From the NCBI GenBank assembly GCA_009923495.1, contig RFTJ01000002.1:65898-129897 (forward strand): a DNA stretch of 64,000 nt. Direction: 5' to 3'. The notes under the pieces are model-generated. The model saw only the letters and a list, made by a program, of their open reading frames with translations, made no database searches and was not told the origin of the DNA. Position 1 is the first letter of the stretch; each line of letters opens with the position of its first letter. This document shows positions 13,275 through 37,726 of the stretch, in pieces. Both the position numbers and the translations under genes were made by a program. The DNA is from Actinomycetota bacterium (lineage in GTDB: Bacteria > Actinomycetota > Actinomycetes > S36-B12 > UBA5976).

Positions 13275-14032
13275 TGGAAAATCCTGCGCACCTTGAACTA
13301 GGTAAGATTCTGGTAATCATCCCTACCTTTAATGAGATTGAAAGCCTGCCCCTGATAGTTACCGGATTACGTGAGCAGGTCCCTGCAGTGCACTTACTGA
13401 TCGTTGATGACAATTCGCCCGACGGCACTGGCGAATTAGCCGATCAAATGGCCAATACTGACGCCAACATTCAAGTACTGCATCGAACCCAAAAGAATGG
13501 ACTCGGTGCTGCCTATTTGGCCGGTTTTGCGTGGGCAAAAGCAAACAGTTTTCAAGTGGTAGTCGAAATGGATGCAGACGGCTCGCACCGCACCGCTGAT
13601 TTACCAAAATTGCTTAATGCATTAGTTAACGCAGATGTGGTGCTTGGCTCACGCTGGGTTAGTGGTGGGGAAGTGGTGAATTGGCCGCTAAGTAGAAAGA
13701 TTTTGTCTCGGGGTGGAAACATTTACACCAGACTACTTCTCAACATTCCCCTGCACGATGCAACCGGCGGTTTCCGAGCGTATCGAATGTCCGCACTTGA
13801 TGCGATGAATGTTCAAACAGTTCAGAGTCAGGGATATTGCTTCCAAGTTGATTTAGCTTGGCGTGCGATACAAAACCACCTGCGCGTTGTTGAAGTCCCA
13901 ATCACTTTCGTCGAACGCGAATTCGGCGAAAGCAAGATGGACTCCCGAATTGTCAAAGAGGCACTACGCCGGGTTACGGTATGGGGTTTGACAAAACGCC
14001 TGGACAAAATTTTGCGAATTTTTCGCGATTAG
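13274..14032 (+). CDS. ppm1: Polyprenol monophosphomannose synthase (GT2)
   Basis: VIIPTFNE, VDDNSPDGT, EMDADGSH. GTG start overlaps the lnt TAG by 1 nt. Confidence 0.88.
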   Translation: MENPAHLELGKILVIIPTFNEIESLPLIVTGLREQVPAVHLLIVDDNSPDGTGELADQMANTDANIQVLHRTQKNGLGAAYLAGFAWAKANSFQVVVEMDADGSHRTADLPKLLNALVNADVVLGSRWVSGGEVVNWPLSRKILSRGGNIYTRLLLNIPLHDATGGFRAYRMSALDAMNVQTVQSQGYCFQVDLAWRAIQNHLRVVEVPITFVEREFGESKMDSRIVKEALRRVTVWGLTKRLDKILRIFRD

Positions 14033-14373
14033 GCGCTACGCAACTGGTCAAAGTCGTGCATCTGGTGCAGCTTTAGCAAGAAGATTTGCGCCAAATCATT
14101 CTCGGTGCGGCGCTCTCGTACGATTTCATAATGCGACCTGCGGGCGCGAATCGGCTCAGGCTCTGGAATGCTCGCCCCAGGAAGAACCGCCACGAGACCG
14201 CACGCACAGTCCCAAGTGACTGGAATTTCTTCGGCATCCGCGGCAAACGGCAGGGTAGATTTGTGCCCGTCGATGCAGGTGTAGGTCACGAGCTGTACGG
14301 CTACATGATCGCCACGGTCTACTTCATAACTAACGTGACTCATTGAACTGCCACGCATTGATTCGTCCATCAT
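14029..14373 (-). CDS. rbpA: RNA polymerase-binding protein RbpA
   Basis: Aligns with Mtb RbpA (RGS..VSYE.DR, PFA.DAEIP.TW.C, PEP, R.H). Start moved to ATG at 14373, preceded by GGGAGG-tcatc. The track ORF extends to a TTG at 14439. Confidence 0.88.
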   Translation of the reverse strand: MMDESMRGSSMSHVSYEVDRGDHVAVQLVTYTCIDGHKSTLPFAADAEEIPVTWDCACGLVAVLPGASIPEPEPIRARRSHYEIVRERRTENDLAQIFLLKLHQMHDFDQLRSA

Positions 14374-14469
14374 GATGACCTCCCGTATTTGATTCGAGCA
14401 ATCTGTTATCGCTTGTCTACCCAACGTAAATACACTCAAACAAAAAGTTCAGCCAAGCTTTTTCTAAGT

Positions 14470-14530
14470 AGTGTTACCCCGCCAACATCGTCTGAAAAAC
14501 TCAGTTACCGGGAGAATTCTGAGTGTTACC
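14470..14530 (-). repeat. Two exact 9-bp direct repeats GGTAACACT (gene-strand sense) 52 bp apart, plus a third GGTAAC copy, upstream of rbpA
   Basis: Plus strand AGTGTTACC at 14470-14478 and 14522-14530, and cagTTACC at 14502-14509. Function unknown. Confidence 0.5.
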
Positions 14531-14695
14531 AATAGGCGCAAAGCCAGACTAAACTCCGTGATTGAAGTCTCAGGGGCGCACACTAATTAGCCGATAAGAT
14601 ACATTATGTCAATCTAACAAAATCTTGCCAGTACTGATGGAATTGACGTGCGACGCACTCATTTACACCGATTCCCGGGCGCTACCCCGCGCTAG

Positions 14696-17584
14696 CTAAT
14701 CGACTTGAAAGGCCTCAGGGCTTGGACAAGAGCAAACCAGGTTGCGGTCACCGTAAGCGCCATCAATTCGTCGAACTGGCGGCCAATATTTATTTCCGAT
14801 GTTTCCCGCTGGATACGCACCAACCGTGCGCTGGTAGACATCAGTCCAGTTACCCAGAACAAACTCAGCGGTATGTGGGGCATTTACCAAAGGGTTGTCT
14901 TGGCCCTGCCAGGCTCCACTTTGTACTTCTCGGATCTCCGCTCGAATACTTCGCATGGCGAAAATGAATCGATCTAATTCTGCAAGCGATTCACTTTCTG
15001 TCGGTTCAATCATCAAAGTGCCTGGCACTGGAAATGACATAGTTGGCGCATGGAATCCATAGTCCATTAGGCGCTTAGCAACATCATCAACGGTGATCCC
15101 GCTTTCCTTGGTGATGTCACGCAAATCTAGGATGCACTCATGAGCAACTAGCCCCTGGTTTCCGCGATACAGCACTGGGTAGTCCGCCGAAAGCTCGGCA
15201 GCTAGATAGTTCGCACTAACCACGGCCACCGATGTAGCGTCTTTGAGACCTTGAGCACCCATTAAGCGGATGTAGGCCCAGGCTATGGGCAAGATGCTGG
15301 CGCTGCCCCAAGGAGCAGCACTGACCGGTCCTACCCCGCCGTCTGTGTAACCCTGCCCTAGGGGGCCCGCCTCGGGGCGAATTGGATGCGATGGCAAATA
15401 AGGTGCCAGGTGCTCTTTTACTGCCACTGGGCCAACCCCAGGTCCCCCGCCACCGTGTGGAATCGCGAAAGTTTTGTGCAGATTTAAGTGCGAAACATCA
15501 GCGCCAAATTTACCGGGTTTGGCTAGCCCCACTAACGCATTAAGGTTTGCGCCATCCACATAGACCTGACCGCCTGCATTATGAATGAGCTCGCAAATTT
15601 CTTGGACCGCAGACTCGTAGACGCCATGCGTCGACGGGTAAGTAATCATTAAAGCGGAAAGAGTCTGTGCATTCTGCTCAATTTTGGATTTGAGATCTGC
15701 TATGTCTACATTGCCTTGCTCGTCACAGGCAACAACGACCACCCGCATGCCTGCCATGACCGCAGAGGCTGCGTTCGTACCGTGGGCACTGCTTGGAATC
15801 AGACAGACATCGCGCTGTGCTTGTCCTTGCGCCTTGTGATACGCCCTAATGGCCAGCAGGCCAGCAAACTCCCCCTGAGAGCCAGCGTTTGGTTGGAGAT
15901 TAACGCTGTCGTAGCCCGTAATCTCGGCTAGCCAGGTTTCGAGCTGGCGAATCATGGCTAAATAACCCTGCACAGTATCTAGTGGTGCGAAGGGATGAAT
16001 CCCGCCAAACTCAGGCCAAGTAACAGCGGCCATCTCGGTGGTTGCGTTCAACTTCATAGTGCATGAACCAAGCGGAATCATTGAGCGATCTAGCGCAATG
16101 TCCTTGTCGCTCAGTCTTCTGATGTAGCGCAGCATGTCTGTTTCACTGTGATGGGAATTGAATACTTCATGAGTCAAGAAACTGCTCCCTCGAAGTAAAT
16201 GTGAGGGCAAGGTTTCGAACTCTATCCCAAATTCTGGGGCAACCACTTCCCCACTGACACTCGCTATCGCTTGCCAGAGGGTCATTACCGTTTGTTTAGT
16301 GGAGGTCTCATCAAAACTAATACTGACAACATCTGCAGAAATTTCATGTACTGCAATTCCAGCGTTGCGGGCCGCTGCGACAATTGCGTTGGCCTTGCCA
16401 GCCAGTGTTACTTGTACCGTGTCAAAAAAGTCACTTGAAGTTGCTACTCCACAGTCACGAAGACCACCAGCAAATGAACTTGCCAGCTGATTTGTTCTGC
16501 GGGCTATTCGAGTTAATCCATTCGGGCCGTGATAGACCGCATACATGGAGGCAAGAACCGCTAAGAGTACCTGGGCTGTGCAGATATTGCTTGTTGCCTT
16601 ATCACGTCGGATGTGCTGTTCCCGAGTTTGTAAAGCAAGACGGTAGGCCAAGTTACCTGCTGCATCTTTAGTAACTCCGACCAAGCGTCCAGGCAGTGAG
16701 CGCTCTAGGCCACTTCGCACAGCCATAAAGCCAGCGTGTGGACCACCGAAGCCGATTGGGACACCAAAGCGCTGTGTGGAACCAACAGCGATGTCCGCTC
16801 CCCACTCTCCCGGTGGCGTTAGCAGTGTAAGAGCGAGCAGATCGGTTACTGCAACTACAAGAGCGCCAGCAGCATGGGCGGTGGTAACTAAAACTCGAAG
16901 GTCGCGAACGCTACCACTGCTTGCTGGGAAACTTACCAATAATCCGAAGCACTCCTCAATTTCATCGCTACAGGTGCTCACATCAATTAGATGAATGTCT
17001 ATCCCTAGTGGCTCGGCTCTAGTTTGCAACACTGCAAGAGTTTGTGGATGCGTGTCCGCATCAACAAGGAAAATGTTTGACTGTGATTTGCTCATTCGGC
17101 GAATCAAAGTCATCGCTTCTGCGGCTGCCGTTGATTCGTCTAAAAGTGACGCACTTGCGATGTCCAAGCCCGTTAAATCGGTAACCATTGTCTGAAAATT
17201 GAGTAAGGCCTCAAGGCGTCCCTGGGAAATTTCTGGTTGATAAGGTGTGTAAGCGGTGTACCAGGCTGGATTTTCGAATATGTTTCGCGCGATAACACCT
17301 GGAGTATGTGTTCCGTAGTAGCCAAGCCCGATCATTGGCGTTAACACGATATTTTTGCCAGCGAGATCGCGCAATTCGGCTAACACTTCTGGTTCCGATC
17401 GCCCAGCTGGAATTTCTAGTTCCTCAGTTAGTGCAATACCTTGGGGTACAGCAACTGCAATTAGTTCCTCTAAATTTGCATAACCAAGCTTGTCTAGCAT
17501 GTGTGTCAGCTGATGTCCATCGGGACCGATATGTCGATCAGCGAAAATTTCATCTGATTTTTGTACTGAAATAAGGTCAGCCAC
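14696..17584 (-). CDS. gcvP: Glycine dehydrogenase (decarboxylating), glycine cleavage P protein
   Basis: About 960 aa single-chain P protein (FADRHIGP..., PLP region [19 protein letters not shown]). Start moved to GTG at 17584 (tgtGGAGtaaaaGTG) because the track ATG at 17620 lies inside a leader hairpin. Confidence 0.93.
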
Positions 17585-17593
17585 TTTTACTCC

Positions 17594-17739
17594 ACAACAA
17601 AGACGGATGCGTTTGCGCATCTCCCCCTCTGTTGCCGTGCTGCTTCAGAGTTGCTGATCCCGCAAGGTCCCTTTGCCTGAGAGGTTATGAGGACATTTGC
17701 CCCGTCGGCGTTGCGCTAAGCGCAAACTCTCCCTTGCAG
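17594..17739 (-). promoter_or_regulatory. Glycine riboswitch: one complete aptamer, a downstream hairpin, and a weak terminator-like stem
   Basis: Gene-strand sequence: CTGCAAGG-GAGAG-tttgcgcttagcgcaa-CGCCGACGGGGCAA-atgtcctcataac-CTCTCAGGCAAAGGGAC-CTTGCGG. P1 is 8 bp (17739-17732 with 17667-17660). Next comes hairpin CTCTG..CAGAG (17650-17627), then GATGCG-caaa-CGCATC followed by cgTCTTTGTTGT (17621-17594). Confidence 0.85.
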
Positions 17740-17755
17740 GTTCGTAAGCAACTCT

Positions 17756-20301: not shown

Positions 20302-20688
20302 TCAACCTGTGATTTGTTGATACGCTACCGCGTCTAACAGCTCTGCGACAGCAACTTCAGCATTTTCGACAATTATGTCGGCTAGCCACCCAGACGCATA
20401 AGGATCCGAGTTAATCACTTCGGGCGCGGTCTCCACTGCGTCATTTCGGGCCGCTACCTTGCCAGAAACTGGAGCAAATATATCGCTCACGCTTTTAGTG
20501 GATTCTACTTCCCCACAATGTGCTCCAGCTGTAACGTTCTGTCCGACCGACGGCAAACTCACAAAAACTATGTCACCAAGTGCATCTTGCGCATAATCGG
20601 TGATACCAAATCGAACCGTAGTTGCATCTAGTACCTGAACCCATTCGTGTTCCGCGGTGTACTTCAAATCGCTAGGTATATTCGCCAT
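20302..20688 (-). CDS. gcvH: Glycine cleavage system H protein
   Basis: 128 aa. YTAEHEWV and the lipoyl-lysine motif GEVESTKSVSD. Confidence 0.95.
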   Translation of the reverse strand: MANIPSDLKYTAEHEWVQVLDATTVRFGITDYAQDALGDIVFVSLPSVGQNVTAGAHCGEVESTKSVSDIFAPVSGKVAARNDAVETAPEVINSDPYASGWLADIIVENAEVAVAELLDAVAYQQITG

Positions 20689-23134: not shown

Positions 23135-23704
23135 CTATTGACCCAATTCAGCAATTACCGATTCGGCAACTGCCCTAACCGAGAGTCGTTTGTCCATAGC
23201 AGCCTTCTGTAGCCAGCGGAAAGCTTGCTGCTCATCTAATGAGAGCTTTGATTGCAGAAGGCCCTTTGCCCGATCTAGTATCTTTCTCGTCTCGAGAGAC
23301 TCAGCAAGACTATCGCGCTGAGCGCCAAGTGATTTTAGATCCGCAAATCGACTAATGGCAATCTCGATTGCTGCGACTACATCTGCTTCGGTGAATGGCT
23401 TCATGACATAGCCCATAACACCTGCACTACCTGCCTGTGCGATGACATCGGCCTGACCAAAGGCAGTGACAAGAACGACTGGAATGTGCTCACGAATGTT
23501 ATGAGCAACTTCAATGCCGTCAAGAAGCGGCATTTTGACATCTAGGACGGCGACATCAGGTGCTAACTCTTTTATCGCCTGTAGGGCGGCCTTTCCGTCA
23601 CTGGCCTGACCTACAACTTCGTAGCCAGCGTGTTCGAGCAACTCCACGAGGTCCATGCGAATTATTGCTTCGTCATCTGCAACGACTACCCGAGTTCTAG
23701 TCAT
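23135..23704 (-). CDS. pdtaR: ANTAR-domain response regulator PdtaR
   Basis: REC domain (VVVADDEAIIR, VAVLDVKMP) plus C-terminal ANTAR (ILDRAKGLLQSKLSLDEQQAFRWLQKAAMDKRLSVRAVAESVI). Confidence 0.9.
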   Translation of the reverse strand: MTRTRVVVADDEAIIRMDLVELLEHAGYEVVGQASDGKAALQAIKELAPDVAVLDVKMPLLDGIEVAHNIREHIPVVLVTAFGQADVIAQAGSAGVMGYVMKPFTEADVVAAIEIAISRFADLKSLGAQRDSLAESLETRKILDRAKGLLQSKLSLDEQQAFRWLQKAAMDKRLSVRAVAESVIAELGQ

Positions 23705-23756
23705 AGACCTAGCCTATGTGCACAACACCCCTTCAGCACGATAACCTAGAAGTCAC

Positions 23757-23830
23757 GCCCTGGTACTCCAACTGGTAGAGAGCGCGGTCTCAAACACCGT
23801 TCAGTGTGGGTTCGAATCCCACCCAGGGCA
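23757..23830 (+). tRNA. tRNA of 74 nt; the hand fold gives anticodon CAA (Leu codon UUG) on a class I (5-nt variable loop) body, so isotype is uncertain
   Basis: Acceptor GCCCTGG/CCAGGGC, discriminator A, no encoded CCA. D arm CTCC-AACTGGTAG-AGAG. Anticodon stem GCGGT/ACCGT with loop CTCAAAC. Variable loop TCAGT. T arm GTGGG-TTCGAAT-CCCAC. Confidence 0.85.
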
Positions 23831-24229
23831 CTACAAGCTCGAAATATTTGATCTGGTTAGGGCAATTTGACCCAACAATCCATTCAGAAATTTCGCTGAC
23901 TGTTCGGTGCTTAAACTTTCAGCAATCTCCATAGCCTCTGCGACAATCACACCCGTGTCCAAATCTTGTTTCCAGGACAATTCAGCAACCGCAACACGAG
24001 CTATAGCCCGGTCAAGTGCAGGCATCCGGTTTATCGTACGTTCCGTTAGGTGTGTTGAGATTAATTCATCTATTCGGCCCAAATTTGCCGTGACCAGGTC
24101 TACAAGCTCAGTGGCGTACTCGTTTACTTCAGGATTGCGCTCAAGGACAGATTGCGCGGATACCGAGCGTTGCTCGCTTTCAAATAGCGCTTCAATCGCT
24201 CTTGAGCGCGCCTTACTTCTGGTTCGCAC
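23831..24229 (-). CDS. nusB: Transcription antitermination factor NusB
   Basis: 132 aa. RSKARSRAIEALFESE, ANLGRIDELI, and a typical NusB helical fold. Upstream of it lies efp, as in Mtb. Confidence 0.9.
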   Translation of the reverse strand: MRTRSKARSRAIEALFESEQRSVSAQSVLERNPEVNEYATELVDLVTANLGRIDELISTHLTERTINRMPALDRAIARVAVAELSWKQDLDTGVIVAEAMEIAESLSTEQSAKFLNGLLGQIALTRSNISSL

Positions 24230-34666: not shown

Positions 34667-35980
34667 CTACTTGCGCCCGAGGATTGTGCGAATCTTCTGC
34701 CAGACTGTCGACAGCCGAGTCTCGTCACCGCGCTTGGTTGGGTGGTAGTAGCGTCGCTGAGAAATCGCTTCGGGCAAATATTGAGCGGTAGCTATTCCCG
34801 AATCCAGGTCGTGCGGGTAGAGGTAAGGCTCTATCTGCCCCGATTCAGCTAATTTGGAGTAATGGCTGCCGCGAAGTGCTGAAGGAACTTCCCCTATGTT
34901 GCCAGATTGGACGTCTGCCAAGGCCGCATTGATGGCTAAATATGCGCTATTGGATTTCGGTGCTAGGGCTATTGCGATTGTCACATGTGCCAAAGTTATG
35001 CGAGCTTCGGGCATACCGATCAGGGCTACAGTTTGCGCTGCGGCACTAGCGAGCGGAAGCAATGAATTATCTGCCAAACCAACGTCCTCGCTTGCCAAGA
35101 TCATCAACCTGCGAGCAATGAATCTTGGATCTTCTCCAGCCTCTAGCATTCTGGCTAAGTAATGTAGCGCAGCATCAACATCTGAACCTCTGACACTTTT
35201 GATGAAAGCGCTAATTACGTCGTAATGCTGGGTACCGTCTTTGTCGTACCGAACTATGTTTTGTGCAGACGCACTGGCAACATCCTCTGGCAGAATTTCA
35301 ACACGCTGTTCGCCAAGGGCTTTGGCAGCACAAGCTTCCAATATAGTTAAGGCTCGGCGGGCATCTCCCCCAGCAAGGCGAACAATGTTGTCCCGAGCTA
35401 ATTCTGATAAGGTCAAGGCTCCTGAGAACCCTTTGTCACTCGCTAGAGCTCGGTCTAGCAGTTGAAGGACATCTGAATCTGCTAGCCCAGTAACCGCAAA
35501 AACTAAGGATCTAGAAAGCAGTGGTGCAACCACACTAAAAGATGGGTTCTCGGTAGTTGCTGCAATCAGCGTGATCCATCCATTTTCCACAGCAGGGAGC
35601 AAGGCATCCTGCTGAGTTTTGCTGAAGCGATGAACTTCATCTATGAAAAGCACAGTTGTACTTCCGGTGAAATTCCGATCGGTTTTGGCTTTATCGATAG
35701 CCTCACGAATTTCTTTAATGCCGGCAGTTATTGCGGATAATTCGATGAACGAAGCGCCGCCAGCCTTAGCTACCAAACCGGCTAAAGTTGTTTTACCGGT
35801 TCCAGGTGGACCCCACAAAATTACTGAGGTACCAGTAGATTCGGGATGTTCCAGCAACCGACGCAATGGGCTATGCGATCCCAGTAAATGCTGCTGTCCG
35901 ACAACTTCATCAAGGGAGTCTGGCCGCATTCGAGCGGCTAATGGTGCAGTCGGCTCACCGGCGCTGAACAACGATGTCAA
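34667..35980 (-). CDS. rarA: Replication-associated recombination protein A (MgsA/RarA AAA+ ATPase)
   Basis: MRPDSLDEVVGQQHLLG, LWGPPGTGKTTLA, LFIDEVHRFSKTQQD, and an MgsA C-terminal domain. Confidence 0.92.
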   Translation of the reverse strand: MTSLFSAGEPTAPLAARMRPDSLDEVVGQQHLLGSHSPLRRLLEHPESTGTSVILWGPPGTGKTTLAGLVAKAGGASFIELSAITAGIKEIREAIDKAKTDRNFTGSTTVLFIDEVHRFSKTQQDALLPAVENGWITLIAATTENPSFSVVAPLLSRSLVFAVTGLADSDVLQLLDRALASDKGFSGALTLSELARDNIVRLAGGDARRALTILEACAAKALGEQRVEILPEDVASASAQNIVRYDKDGTQHYDVISAFIKSVRGSDVDAALHYLARMLEAGEDPRFIARRLMILASEDVGLADNSLLPLASAAAQTVALIGMPEARITLAHVTIAIALAPKSNSAYLAINAALADVQSGNIGEVPSALRGSHYSKLAESGQIEPYLYPHDLDSGIATAQYLPEAISQRRYYHPTKRGDETRLSTVWQKIRTILGRK

Positions 35981-35986
35981 ACTTGG

Positions 35987-37726
35987 TTACTTTACTTCTT
36001 CGGCGAATGGATCAACATCAATGCCCGCTTCAGTTCGTTGCTGTGAAGTAATTGGAGTCGGTGCACTTGTCAATGGATCAAACCCTGCTCCAGTTTTTGG
36101 AAATGCAATGACATCGCGAAGACTTGTTGAACCAGTCAAAAGCATGCAAATACGATCCCAGCCAAATGCAATACCTCCGTGTGGTGGTGGACCAAATGCA
36201 AAGGCATCGAGCAGGAAGCCAAACTTCTCCTGGGCCTGCTCTGGACTTAGTCCGAGTAACTGGAAAACTCTTTGCTGCACGTCATGCTGGTGGATGCGGA
36301 TTGAGCCACCGCCAATTTCATTTCCATTGCAGACAATGTCGTATGCCCAGGCAAGCGCTTGATCTGGAGCCGTTTCAAAATTGTCCAGCCACTCGTCATT
36401 CGGTGAAGTAAACGGATGATGAACTGCTGTCCAGCCACCGTCGTCGGTGCGTTCAAACATTGGCGCATCGACTACCCATAAAAAGGACCATTCGTCCTCA
36501 TTTATCAAGCCGCAACGGTTGCCGACCTCAAGTCGTACCGCCCCCAATAGGGCCAAAGCTTCTGATTTTGGTCCAGCAGCAAAAAATACGCAGTCTCCGG
36601 ATTTTGCGCCTGTGTGTGCGGCAAGTCCTTCGCGCTCTGCTTCGGAGAGATTTTTAGCAACCGGGCCGCCTAAAGAACCATCGGCTTCAAAAGTAACGTA
36701 AGCCAAGCCTTTGGCTCCACGCTGTTTTGCCCATTCTTGCCACGCGTCAAAGGTCCGCCTTGGCTGGTCGGCACCGCCTGGCATCAGAACTGCACCAATG
36801 TGCTGTGCTTGGAATACACGGAATGCCGTATTGGCAAAGTATTCAGTGCAATCTATAAGTTCGAGATTAAATCTCAGGTCGGGCTTATCTGAGCCAAAAC
36901 GTCGCATGGCCTCGAAGTATGTCATTCTGGGTATCTCACCGATTTGGTGTCCTAGAATCCCCTGCCAGAGAGCGCGGACGATAGCTTCGCCAACCTGTAG
37001 TACATCGTCTTGTTCGACGAAACTCATTTCAATATCTAATTGAGTGAATTCCGGTTGGCGATCCGCACGAAAATCCTCATCGCGGTAACACCTCGCTATT
37101 TGGTAATAGCGTTCAAGGCCACCAACCATCAGAAGTTGTTTGAAAAGCTGCGGACTCTGCGGCAGTGCATACCAGTGGCCTGGTTGCAATCTCACTGGAA
37201 CAAGGAAATCGCGAGCTCCTTCAGGGGTGGAGCGAGTTAGAGTCGGTGTTTCGATCTCCAGAAATCTCTGTTCATCAAGGATTGCCCTTGCTAGGCGACC
37301 CATCTCGCTGCGAACGCGTAAGGCGTTAGCTGCCGATGGACGTCGCAAATCTAAATAGCGATACTTGAACCTTGTCTCATCGCCAACGTTGACTGAGTCA
37401 TCGATTGGAAAAGGTAAGGGAGCACTCTTGCTAAGTACAATTACCTCGTCAGCGACTACCTCTATCGCGCCTGTTGGGATGTCTAAATTTTCGTTCCCTG
37501 CAGGTCGAACTCTGACTGAGCCAGAAATCTTTAAACAAAACTCCGCTCGTAATTCGCTGGCCACAGCTTCGTCATTAACGACTACCTGAACTGTTCCCGA
37601 TGAATCTCGCAAATCTAGAAAAGCGATTCCACCATGATCTCGACGCTTAGCAACCCAGCCTGTTAGCGTTACCTGAATTCCAGAGTCTTGTTCTTGGAGT
37701 GTTCCACATTCGTGGGTGCGAAGCAT
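35987..37726 (-). CDS. aspS: Aspartate--tRNA ligase
   Basis: 579 aa. [45 protein letters not shown]. Confidence 0.97.

Follow-up and report, generated by a model that had tools for sequence, protein, structure and literature searches.

Between nusB and a pdtaR-like gene, the 64,000-nt stretch of actinobacterial DNA analysed here (the window) carries what we consider, with a probability of about 90%, a working tRNALeu(CAA) of the type I form, which has a variable loop of 5 nt where bacterial leucine tRNAs normally carry a long arm. Though unusual, this kind of tRNA is known, and the gene is an ordinary example of it. Type I tRNALeu(CAA) was described in Streptomyces coelicolor (Fan, Huang, Ji and Wang 2019, Nucleic Acids Res 47:6369; PMC6614811), and was treated there as a rare trait found in some Streptomyces. 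Our results show that it is the usual form of tRNALeu(CAA) in many actinobacteria.

A type I tRNALeu(CAA) gene between pdtaR and nusB

The tRNA-Leu(CAA) gene at positions 23757–23830 is real, and two independent tools agree on it. ARAGORN called tRNA-Leu(caa) at 23757–23831 on the plus strand and placed the anticodon at gene position 35. The Rfam model RF00005 matched 23757–23830 (plus strand) over its full length (model positions 1–71) with 52.6 bits and an E-value of 1.9e-8 (gathering score 29); the other three tRNAs of the window scored higher (65–72 bits). The features of the locus are as follows.

23135–23704, minus strand: pdtaR-like response regulator gene with receiver and ANTAR domains (Pfam Response_reg, ANTAR), divergent neighbour of the tRNA gene
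23711–23716, minus strand: TAGGCT, -10-like hexamer with its end 6 nt ahead of the pdtaR ATG, candidate promoter of a leaderless pdtaR mRNA
23742–23747, plus strand: TAACCT, -10-like hexamer, candidate tRNA promoter, 9 nt upstream of the tRNA 5′ end
23757–23830, plus strand: type I tRNA-Leu(CAA) gene with short variable loop, 74 nt through discriminator A73 (ARAGORN, Rfam RF00005, covariation)
23766–23782, plus strand: D arm CUCC-AACUGGUAG-AGAG, three Watson-Crick pairs plus C13 facing A22 (alternatively C13-G with a bulged A)
23789–23795, plus strand: anticodon loop C32-U33-C34-A35-A36-A37-C38, 7 nt, anticodon CAA at 23791–23793 (sequence, ARAGORN, covariation of the flanking stem)
23801–23805, plus strand: variable loop UCAGU, 5 nt, U48 pairing with A15 in the 15-48 tertiary pair (sequence)
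23831–24229, minus strand: nusB (ORF list, Pfam NusB), convergent with the tRNA gene, stop codon at 23831–23833

The RNA has an acceptor stem of 7 bp (GCCCUGG/CCAGGGC), an anticodon stem GCGGU/ACCGU, a T loop UUCGAAU, and U8, A14, A15 and G18G19. The discriminator A73 is present and the CCA end is not encoded (GGGCA is followed by CTA). A long variable arm of more than 10 nt with a stem is absent, the loop having 5 nt. The mismatch at 13:22 in the D stem (C13/A22) is marked in the Rfam alignment and is conserved in the type I homologues. The first-pass annotation had drawn by hand a 74-nt gene of class I shape with these features and the anticodon CAA, all of which were recovered by ARAGORN, the Rfam covariance model, covariation and our own reading of the sequence. 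The range given there (23705–23833) contains the gene, but it starts 52 nt too early, since 23705–23756 is the spacer to pdtaR.

Covariation supports the fold throughout Actinomycetota

An energy-only MFE fold reproduced the acceptor and T arms and paired the D/anticodon region differently; the fold was judged by covariation, not by thermodynamic MFE. Homologues were collected by a pattern scan of 185,579 species genomes. The scan yielded at least 120 loci, about 108 of them stand-alone tRNA-Leu(caa) genes of 74–77 nt in Actinomycetota, and type I genes were found in three classes (Actinomycetes, Acidimicrobiia and Nitriliruptoria) as single genes in about 100 named actinobacterial genomes. 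Across 68 distinct homologues, 99.4% of the stem cells were paired, and 17 of the 21 pairs displayed compensatory changes on both sides. None of 500 shuffles reached the observed covariation value, and slid controls were only 37–52% paired. All five pairs of the anticodon stem covaried, and sliding the partners by one to three columns destroyed the pairing. Covariation was also seen in the D-stem pairs 10:25 and 11:24. The A15-U48 pair, which had been put forward as a possibility, was confirmed: positions 15 and 48 form A-U in 55 and G-C in 13 of the 68 homologues without exception. Furthermore, the variable loop had 5 nt in every homologue, and U8, A14, C13, G18G19 and A73 were invariant, whereas invariance in this set is not evidence for the bases fixed by the scan pattern itself (CTCAAAC and GGTTCGAATCC). 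The anticodon-stem sequence varied freely among the type I homologues (GCAGU, AUGGU, CGGUG, UUCGG and others). Conservation analysis identifies the gene as a standard isoacceptor of its clade, an outcome that the first-pass annotation had named as refuting its reading.

Genomic context of the tRNA gene

A 52-nt spacer separates the pdtaR start from the 5′ end of the tRNA gene, and the two genes are divergently oriented. The best match of the pdtaR product among solved structures was 1S8N/1SD5, a 'putative antiterminator' (E 1e-53, full length). As in the window, pdtaR was adjacent in 102 of the 103 named type I loci with enough flank, and tRNA-Leu(CAA) was linked to pdtaR in 71 of 73 pdtaR-anchored metagenome loci.

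On the other side, the CTA of the nusB stop codon follows A73 directly, in agreement with the 0-bp contact noted earlier. The spacer alignment revealed a 7-nt deletion at this junction relative to close relatives, some of which encode CCA; the deletion accounts for both the contact and the loss of the encoded CCA. The gene had further been called the only plus-strand gene in a minus-strand run of roughly 25 kb. Between 14696 and 39710, every ORF of 180 aa or more is indeed on the minus strand, with the exception of one plus-strand ORF (35643–36362) that overlaps larger minus-strand ORFs.

A consensus scan for sigma-70 promoters and terminators found no site near the tRNA, and the candidate promoters are proposed from conserved -10-like boxes. 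For the plus-strand hexamer, TAACCT or TAGCCT occurs at the same distance in the closest relatives (L121–L129; PdtaR 82–87% identical), in which nearby spacer bases vary. For the minus-strand hexamer, the spacer block CCTAGCCTATGTG is kept in these relatives. Read-through from nusB would be antisense to the tRNA, as had been pointed out, and the geometry is right. It is probably of little consequence, because the conserved boxes suggest that pdtaR has a promoter of its own.

Leucine identity and use of UUG

In the window, which comes from a lineage of about 50% G+C, UUG is the commonest leucine codon and makes up 20.4% of the leucine codons of 32 ORFs. An alignment of PdtaR only covered two UUG codons and was uninformative; it was replaced by 13 ORFs with 264 alignments. 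At window UUG codons the orthologues had L (52%), M, T, V or I. W was absent from the residues listed as aligned to UUG, while UGG aligned with W in 95%. No leuS gene was found in the window; the large ORFs examined encode a helicase, AlaRS and RelA.

The biochemistry of this tRNA form comes from S. coelicolor, whose single leucyl-tRNA synthetase (ScoLeuRS) leucylates type I tRNALeu(CAA) with a kcat/Km of 6.25 s-1 uM-1 (PMC6614811). Recognition there depends on U8:A14, on the length of the variable loop, on the 3′ end and on the leucine-specific domain of LeuRS, but not on a long arm or the anticodon (PMC6614811). The length of the loop (A44-C48, 5 nt) counts and not its sequence, C74 of the 3′ end A73-C74-C75-A76 is critical for ScoLeuRS, and the G18G19/U55C56 elbow is among the features of the tRNA (PMC6614811). 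On the enzyme side, charging was tied to the leucine-specific domain and to the L732/G733 linker to KMSKS (PMC6614811). Deletion of the type I gene was attempted in S. coelicolor and failed, UUG is widely used in this organism, and in earlier work cited there an anticodon-swapped type I tRNA replaced bldA (PMC6614811). Six Streptomyces genomes contain exactly one CAA gene each (PMC4932002), and the CAA gene that our scan found in S. venezuelae ATCC 10712 (L085) is of type I. By analogy with Streptomyces, the window gene may be the sole CAA isoacceptor of its host, although the genome outside the window may hold another, long-armed tRNALeu(CAA) or a tRNALeu(UAA) that reads UUG.

Alternative explanations

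The first-pass annotation had offered four explanations for the odd shape, namely an atypical or mis-identity tRNA, a non-translational role, a decaying gene and a wrong hand fold. The gene is atypical in the sense of the known type I tRNALeu(CAA); the other readings were contradicted or gained no support. That a covariance model would give a different fold and anticodon is a negligible possibility. The energy-only pairing of the D/anticodon region points that way, but ARAGORN and Rfam both arrived at the loop CUCAAAC with anticodon CAA, and the five covarying pairs around this loop leave no room for a shift. Equally negligible is a decaying or duplicated pseudogene between nusB and pdtaR. The Rfam score below those of the neighbouring tRNAs, the C13-A22 mismatch, the missing CCA and the tight fit against nusB might suggest decay. 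However, the mismatch is invariant in the homologues including the characterised Streptomyces type, and the stems are paired with compensatory changes throughout the phylum. Moreover, the gene is retained in streamlined 1.3-Mb Nanopelagicaceae genomes, and the tRNA differs by only 1–3 bases in relatives in which PdtaR is 67–87% identical.

A tRNA-Trp-derived body with a CAA anticodon, which would insert Trp or another amino acid at UUG, appears very improbable. In its favour, the first-pass annotation noted a resemblance to tRNA-Trp arms, which lies in the stem GCGGU/ACCGU and the loop start CUC. Since all five pairs of this stem vary among the homologues, its sequence carries no identity signal, and judged from the aligned sequences the Trp-like stem is a coincidence. 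In bacteria, G73 and the CCA anticodon serve as identity elements for TrpRS; in contrast, A73 is present in 68 of 68 homologues. The D arm is colinear with that of the long-armed tRNALeu(CAA) of the same slot, the UUG alignments give no hint of Trp, and the Streptomyces orthologue is leucylated (PMC6614811). A mainly non-translational role, either as aminoacyl donor for a tRNA-dependent transferase or as an RNA coupled to the ANTAR regulator PdtaR, is unlikely, and we found no support for it. The strikingly conserved linkage to pdtaR would fit such a coupling, but it holds equally for the long-armed tRNALeu(CAA) and is thus not tied to the short arm. The single CAA gene of the six Streptomyces genomes (PMC4932002), the failed deletion together with the wide use of UUG in S. 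coelicolor (PMC6614811) and the rank of UUG among the leucine codons of the window all speak against it.

Proposed pathway

As a working type I tRNALeu(CAA), the gene would be transcribed divergently from pdtaR. The transcript would be trimmed and receive its CCA from the CCA-adding enzyme, which is required because CCA is not encoded. The RNA is predicted to fold into the normal L shape, in line with the covariation including the 15-48 tertiary pair. By extrapolation from S. coelicolor, the single LeuRS of the host would charge it with leucine, and the charged tRNA would then read UUG, the use of which is evident from the window ORFs.

Comparison with known tRNALeu forms

For the window alone, little is at stake: the gene is already labelled tRNA-Leu(CAA), and correctly so, by standard annotation tools, and a biochemical explanation of its odd shape is in print. 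The broader pattern deserves the attention of tRNA specialists. Type I is not limited to Streptomyces: it occurs in about 100 named genomes of three actinobacterial classes, among them freshwater lineages with streamlined genomes. It is conceivable, at somewhat less than even odds, that the short-armed and the long-armed gene are two interchangeable forms of one pdtaR-linked gene across Actinomycetota, so that the short form would be no mere peculiarity of Streptomyces and no relic of primordial times, and that it may share a design family with the short-armed tRNALeu of phage arrays. If so, arm loss or phage-host exchange would have taken place at the scale of a phylum with co-adaptation of LeuRS, and many bacterial LeuRS would accept an armless tRNALeu in vivo. 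The spread of type I, the shared pdtaR slot and the phage design together make a natural comparative system in which to study how an armless tRNALeu is recognised by LeuRS, and why some genes retain the long arm and others do not. In the literature outside subscription journals, we found no paper on the phylum-wide distribution of type I or on phage short-armed tRNA-Leu, save one remark (PMC6582537).

The closest counterpart is the S. coelicolor type I tRNA. Both have the anticodon CAA, a 5-nt variable loop, U8:A14, G18G19, UUCGAAU and A73; Streptomyces type I genes also adjoin pdtaR, and the sequences align colinearly. The variable loop of the Streptomyces copies from our scan, ACAGC, is identical to the one reported for S. 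coelicolor. The window tRNA differs by A15-U48 in place of G15-C48, by the CCA that is not encoded, by its contact with nusB and by its host, an uncultured lineage. Whereas the S. coelicolor tRNA has been shown biochemically, the window copy is known from its sequence.

Other actinobacteria have a normal long-armed tRNALeu(CAA) of 84–87 nt in the same pdtaR slot (L139, L157, L135). The window tRNA shares with these class II genes the anticodon, the slot, A14, A15-U48 and A73, and also the layout of the D arm with three pairs, the 13:22 mismatch and the loop AAYGGCAG. In contrast to their variable region of about 15 nt with a stem and tetraloop, G9, G13 and the loop CUCAAAA, it has the 5-nt loop, A9, C13 and CUCAAAC. 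The alignment of the two forms displayed a clean 10-column gap. In a neighbour-joining tree of PdtaR, 43 of the 47 long-arm metagenome loci of this slot grouped together beside loci of Cellulomonas, Actinomyces and Bifidobacteriaceae. PdtaR of the long-arm loci shared only about 64% identity with Rv1626 of M. tuberculosis.

Short-armed tRNALeu genes are also common in phage tRNA arrays, and a short-armed tRNALeu(TAG) in a Mycobacterium tRNA cluster was mentioned by Behra et al. 2019 (PMC6582537). Like the window tRNA, the tRNAs of phage and chromosomal arrays have a 5-nt loop ending in U48, N13 facing A22, A73 and the D arm NNNN-AAYNGGNAG-ANNN; the variable loop of Lactobacillus phage ATCC 8014-B2 (CCAGU) is that of many actinobacterial copies. 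These genes stand in arrays with as many as 42 tRNA genes, have the anticodons caa, taa, tag, cag and gag, usually encode CCA and have no link to pdtaR, whereas the window gene is solitary and chromosomal.

With tRNA-Trp(CCA) the window tRNA has the class I shape in common, and the anticodon stems resemble each other by chance in this one genome; the anticodon CAA, A73 and a stem sequence that is not conserved in the homologues set it apart. Animal mitochondrial tRNALeu(UUR) is likewise a type I tRNALeu without the long arm, but it belongs to a separate evolutionary context with its own dedicated LeuRS. This mitochondrial tRNA is not a substrate of ScoLeuRS, while the Streptomyces type I tRNA is leucylated in vitro by the LeuRS of human mitochondria (PMC6614811).

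A tRNA-Leu gene with a short variable loop next to nusB

Four tRNA genes were predicted by ARAGORN across the window, one of them a plus-strand tRNA-Leu gene (anticodon caa) at 23757-23831. A full-length match to the Rfam tRNA covariance model covers 23757-23830 with 52.6 bits (gathering score 29), while the three other tRNAs, for Gly, Cys and Val at about 61 kb, scored 65-72 bits. The gene is already named correctly by standard annotation tools. The first-pass annotation had placed its start at 23705, which is 52 nt too early, as 23705-23756 form the spacer to a divergent gene. In contrast, all structural features listed there were found in the sequence: a 7-bp acceptor stem, G18G19, U33, A15 with U48, the T loop UUCGAAU, discriminator A, the anticodon stem GCGGU/ACCGU and a 5-nt variable loop. 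The sole irregularity is C13 opposite A22 in the D stem.

Features of the tRNA-Leu(CAA) locus
23757-23830, plus strand: tRNA-Leu(CAA), read directly as GCCCUGG-UA-CUCC-AACUGGUAG-AGAG-C-GCGGU-CUCAAAC-ACCGU-UCAGU-GUGGG-UUCGAAU-CCCAC-CCAGGGC-A
23135-23704, minus strand: pdtaR-like gene, receiver and ANTAR domains (Pfam hits on record)
23831-24229, minus strand: nusB ORF, stop codon starting right after A73
23742-23747, plus strand: TAACCT, 9 nt before the tRNA, kept in the closest relatives
23716-23711, minus strand: TAGGCT, 6 nt before the pdtaR ATG, kept in the closest relatives

Covariation fixes the fold and the anticodon

GTDB (one genome per species) was scanned for the anticodon loop and T arm at class-I spacing (CTCAAAC, 12-14 free bases and GGTTCGAATCC). 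The scan returned at least 120 loci, and ARAGORN found a stand-alone 74-77-nt tRNA-Leu(caa) in 108 among the 120 matches listed. According to record titles, hosts among these matches included Streptomyces, Kitasatospora, Micromonospora, Salinispora, Actinoplanes, Nocardioides, Kribbella, Cellulomonas, Demequinaceae, Isoptericola, Actinomyces, Bifidobacteriaceae, Pseudonocardia, Amycolatopsis, Frankiaceae, Kineococcus, Streptosporangiaceae, Nocardiopsis, 'Ca. Planktophila' and other Nanopelagicaceae, Ilumatobacteraceae (Acidimicrobiia) and Nitriliruptorales.

We aligned 68 distinct sequences, including that of the window, cut at A73. The cloverleaf was 99.4% paired with two-sided changes at 17 of 21 pairs, and none of 500 shuffles matched the observed percentage of pairing, compensatory pairs or covariation score. 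Shifting the 3' partners by 1-3 columns reduced pairing to 37-52%. All five anticodon-stem pairs covaried (27:43, for example, occurs as C-G, G-U, A-U, G-C and U-A), which fixes the 7-nt loop and hence the anticodon CAA. At the tertiary pair 15:48, A-U occurred in 55 and G-C in 13 sequences without exception, and U8, A14, C13 and A73 were invariant in all 68. Constancy of the loop and the T-arm core is not evidence here, since the scan pattern preset them, but that pattern left the stems and the 15:48 pair unconstrained. Folding the single sequence by energy alone recovered the acceptor and T arms and missed the other two, a result that carries less weight than covariation. The hand-drawn fold with anticodon CAA, which the first-pass annotation had itself called into question, is therefore upheld by ARAGORN, the Rfam match and the covariation of the whole anticodon stem.

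Leucine identity and alternative readings

Mis-identity had been considered on first reading, and the anticodon arm had been likened to that of tRNA-Trp. The resemblance to tRNA-Trp is based on the anticodon-stem sequence, which varies freely across the family of tRNALeu with a 5-nt variable loop (type I). The type I D arm, NNCC-AAYNGGNAG-AGNN with three pairs and a 13:22 mismatch, has the same layout as that of class II, long-armed tRNALeu(CAA) genes next to pdtaR (NNNG-AAUGGCAG-ACNN). UUG was the commonest Leu codon in 32 window ORFs (267 of 1307, 20.4%). In 264 alignments of 13 window proteins with orthologues below 90% identity, UUG stood opposite L (52%), M, T, V or I, the T share coming mostly from one variable PdtaR position. 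W was absent among the residues listed for UUG, whereas UGG stood opposite W in 95%. A Trp-like identity is thus not supported. Decay of the gene, likewise proposed on first reading, is excluded by the covariation in homologues and by a tRNA that differs at only 1-3 bases in relatives with no more than 67-87% PdtaR identity. Nothing pointed to an additional, non-translational role of the tRNA.

Linkage to pdtaR and long-armed counterparts

A pdtaR homologue adjoined tRNA-Leu(CAA) in 102 of the 103 named loci with enough flanking sequence, in divergent orientation in 81 (median gap 147 nt) and co-directionally downstream in 20. We know of no functional link between the two genes. Two MAG contigs with actinobacterial type I tRNAs are probably mis-binned or mislabelled: L045 (labelled Brevundimonas sp.) has a tRNA identical to the Cellulomonas type with pdtaR adjacent, and the tRNA of L119 (labelled Bifidobacterium breve) is identical to the Planktophila type.

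A metagenome search anchored on PdtaR and blind to the tRNA yielded 80 loci, 73 of them with at least 150 nt upstream. In 71 of these 73, tRNA-Leu(caa) was located upstream of pdtaR. Only 24 of the 71 were type I, including 13 close relatives of the window; the remaining 47 were ordinary long-armed tRNALeu(CAA) genes of 84-87 nt.

Retrieved loci with a long-armed tRNALeu(CAA) at pdtaR
L135, L139, L141, L142, L145, L146, L149, L151-L159, L161-L169, L171
L173, L174, L176-L183, L185-L187, L190, L193-L197, L199, L200

When the two forms were aligned, the variable arm was the site of a clean gap of 10 columns. In a neighbour-joining tree of PdtaR, 43 long-armed loci formed one group beside Cellulomonas, Actinomyces and Bifidobacteriaceae loci, while the other four sat among type I loci. 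Short- and long-armed tRNALeu(CAA) thus appear to be positional counterparts. They mostly differ at position 38 (window 23795): in this unbiased set, 21 of 24 type I genes have C38 (loop CUCAAAC) and three have A38 (L138, L148 and L160), whereas all long-armed genes have A38 (CUCAAAA). As MiaA requires A36-A37-A38, the short-armed tRNA may lack i6A37.

Organization of the nusB-pdtaR region

The best solved relative of the product of the divergent gene is the 'putative antiterminator' 1S8N/1SD5, which we take to be M. tuberculosis Rv1626, PdtaR. A PdtaR protein identical to that of the window is encoded on 21 public contigs, including GCA_009927365.1 and several metagenome assemblies, and the order aroB-aroQ-pepQ-efp-nusB-[tRNA]-pdtaR-pgsA was found in all PdtaR-identical places shown with enough upstream DNA. 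These occurrences suggest that the window comes from an uncultured lineage.

Contact between the nusB stop codon and the tRNA 3' end at 0 bp was confirmed by sequence and ORF list. In the close relatives L121-L129, the acceptor stem is followed by GGGCA-CCATCTG-CTA or a near variant, with CCA encoded in three of them (L121-L123), and the nusB stop is 6-7 nt further off. The window and conspecific contigs are without these 7 nt (CCATCTG). Judged by this comparison, the contact results from a small lineage-specific deletion, which removed the encoded CCA and brought the stop codon flush with A73.

TAACCT and TAGGCT are two conserved blocks within the 52-nt spacer of the closest relatives, suggesting putative back-to-back -10 boxes of divergent promoters; the pdtaR mRNA would then probably be leaderless. 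A sigma-70 consensus scan of the spacer returned no promoter, and likewise no terminator was found. If the -10 reading is right, pdtaR would be independent of nusB read-through across the antisense tRNA.

The tRNA had also been described as the lone plus-strand gene in a minus-strand run. Large ORFs between 14.7 and 39.7 kb are indeed on the minus strand, except for one plus-strand ORF (35643-36362) that overlaps larger minus-strand ORFs. The GC skew changes sign at about 14000-14700, where genes turn from plus (5.5-14.0 kb) to minus (14.7-39.7 kb). Within the run, Rfam RF00504 identifies a glycine riboswitch aptamer at 17655-17744 on the minus strand (65 bits), upstream of a 974-aa ORF (14696-17620), and a gene for GCV_H (glycine cleavage H protein) is at 20302-20688.

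Short-armed tRNA-Leu in arrays and phages

About nine tandem chromosomal tRNA arrays from other phyla were among the genome matches listed (L011, L015, L030, L038, L067, L072, L094, L102 and L109). Their hosts are Lachnospiraceae, Acidobacteriota/Pyrinomonadaceae, Planctomycetota and Myxococcota, and the retrieved DNA of six arrays contains 19-34 tRNA genes. They contain short-armed genes of the same design for several Leu anticodons, and Ser and Tyr tRNAs retain their arms. In a Kofleriaceae locus (L114), a short tRNA-Leu stands alone and is not accompanied by pdtaR.

The scan pattern also matched at least 120 IMG/VR viral contigs (L207-L326), mostly within arrays with as many as 42 tRNA genes. 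Among the IMG/VR matches listed, the other Leu isoacceptors were predominantly short too (taa, 55 short versus 9 long; tag, 38 versus 6), while all 157 Ser and 48 of 50 Tyr genes were long. Short-armed anticodons in phage arrays were caa, taa, tag, cag and gag; the short-armed tRNA-Leu genes include that of locus L327 (300-374). Annotated tRNA-Leu genes of cultured Mycobacterium, Streptomyces, Lactobacillus, Pseudomonas, Bacillus and Erwinia phages (records H1-H25) align with the window gene, in some records along its full length. Lactobacillus phage ATCC 8014-B2 encodes a 73-nt tRNA-Leu(uag) with the D arm of the window gene and the variable loop CCAGU. Within the literature searched, a single remark on such genes was found, concerning a Mycobacterium tRNA cluster (PMC6582537).

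Comparison with type I tRNALeu(CAA) of Streptomyces

Of the five tRNALeu isoacceptors in S. coelicolor, four are long-armed, while tRNALeu(CAA) has the 5-nt variable loop A44-C45-A46-G47-C48 (Fan et al. 2019, PMC6614811). Exactly this loop, ACAGC, is present in several retrieved Streptomyces loci. The single S. coelicolor LeuRS charges tRNALeu(CAA) with a kcat/Km of 6.25 s-1 uM-1, compared with 14.2 for the long-armed UAA species, but it is not charged by the E. coli enzyme (PMC6614811). Charging depends on U8:A14, variable-loop length, C74 and the leucine-specific domain of LeuRS, with a minor contribution of A73; attempts to delete the gene were unsuccessful (PMC6614811). Earlier work cited there showed that this tRNA, with its anticodon changed to UAA, substituted for bldA in vivo, and Streptomyces strains without a type I gene exist (PMC6614811). 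S. venezuelae presumably has no CAA gene other than the type I gene, since one CAA gene per genome was tabulated for six Streptomyces including strain ATCC 10712 (PMC4932002) and the S. venezuelae locus L085 is type I.

The window gene is colinear with Streptomyces type I tRNALeu(CAA) in alignment and has the same neighbour, pdtaR. On these sequence grounds we conclude that it is an orthologue of the characterized tRNA and presumably works in the same way. All criteria that the sequence allowed us to apply assign it to the type I tRNALeu(CAA) family, whose definition comes from S. coelicolor. The gene itself would not surprise a specialist familiar with the 2019 paper; mildly surprising may be how widely the family extends across the phylum, how short and long forms alternate at a single conserved slot and how abundant this design is in phages.
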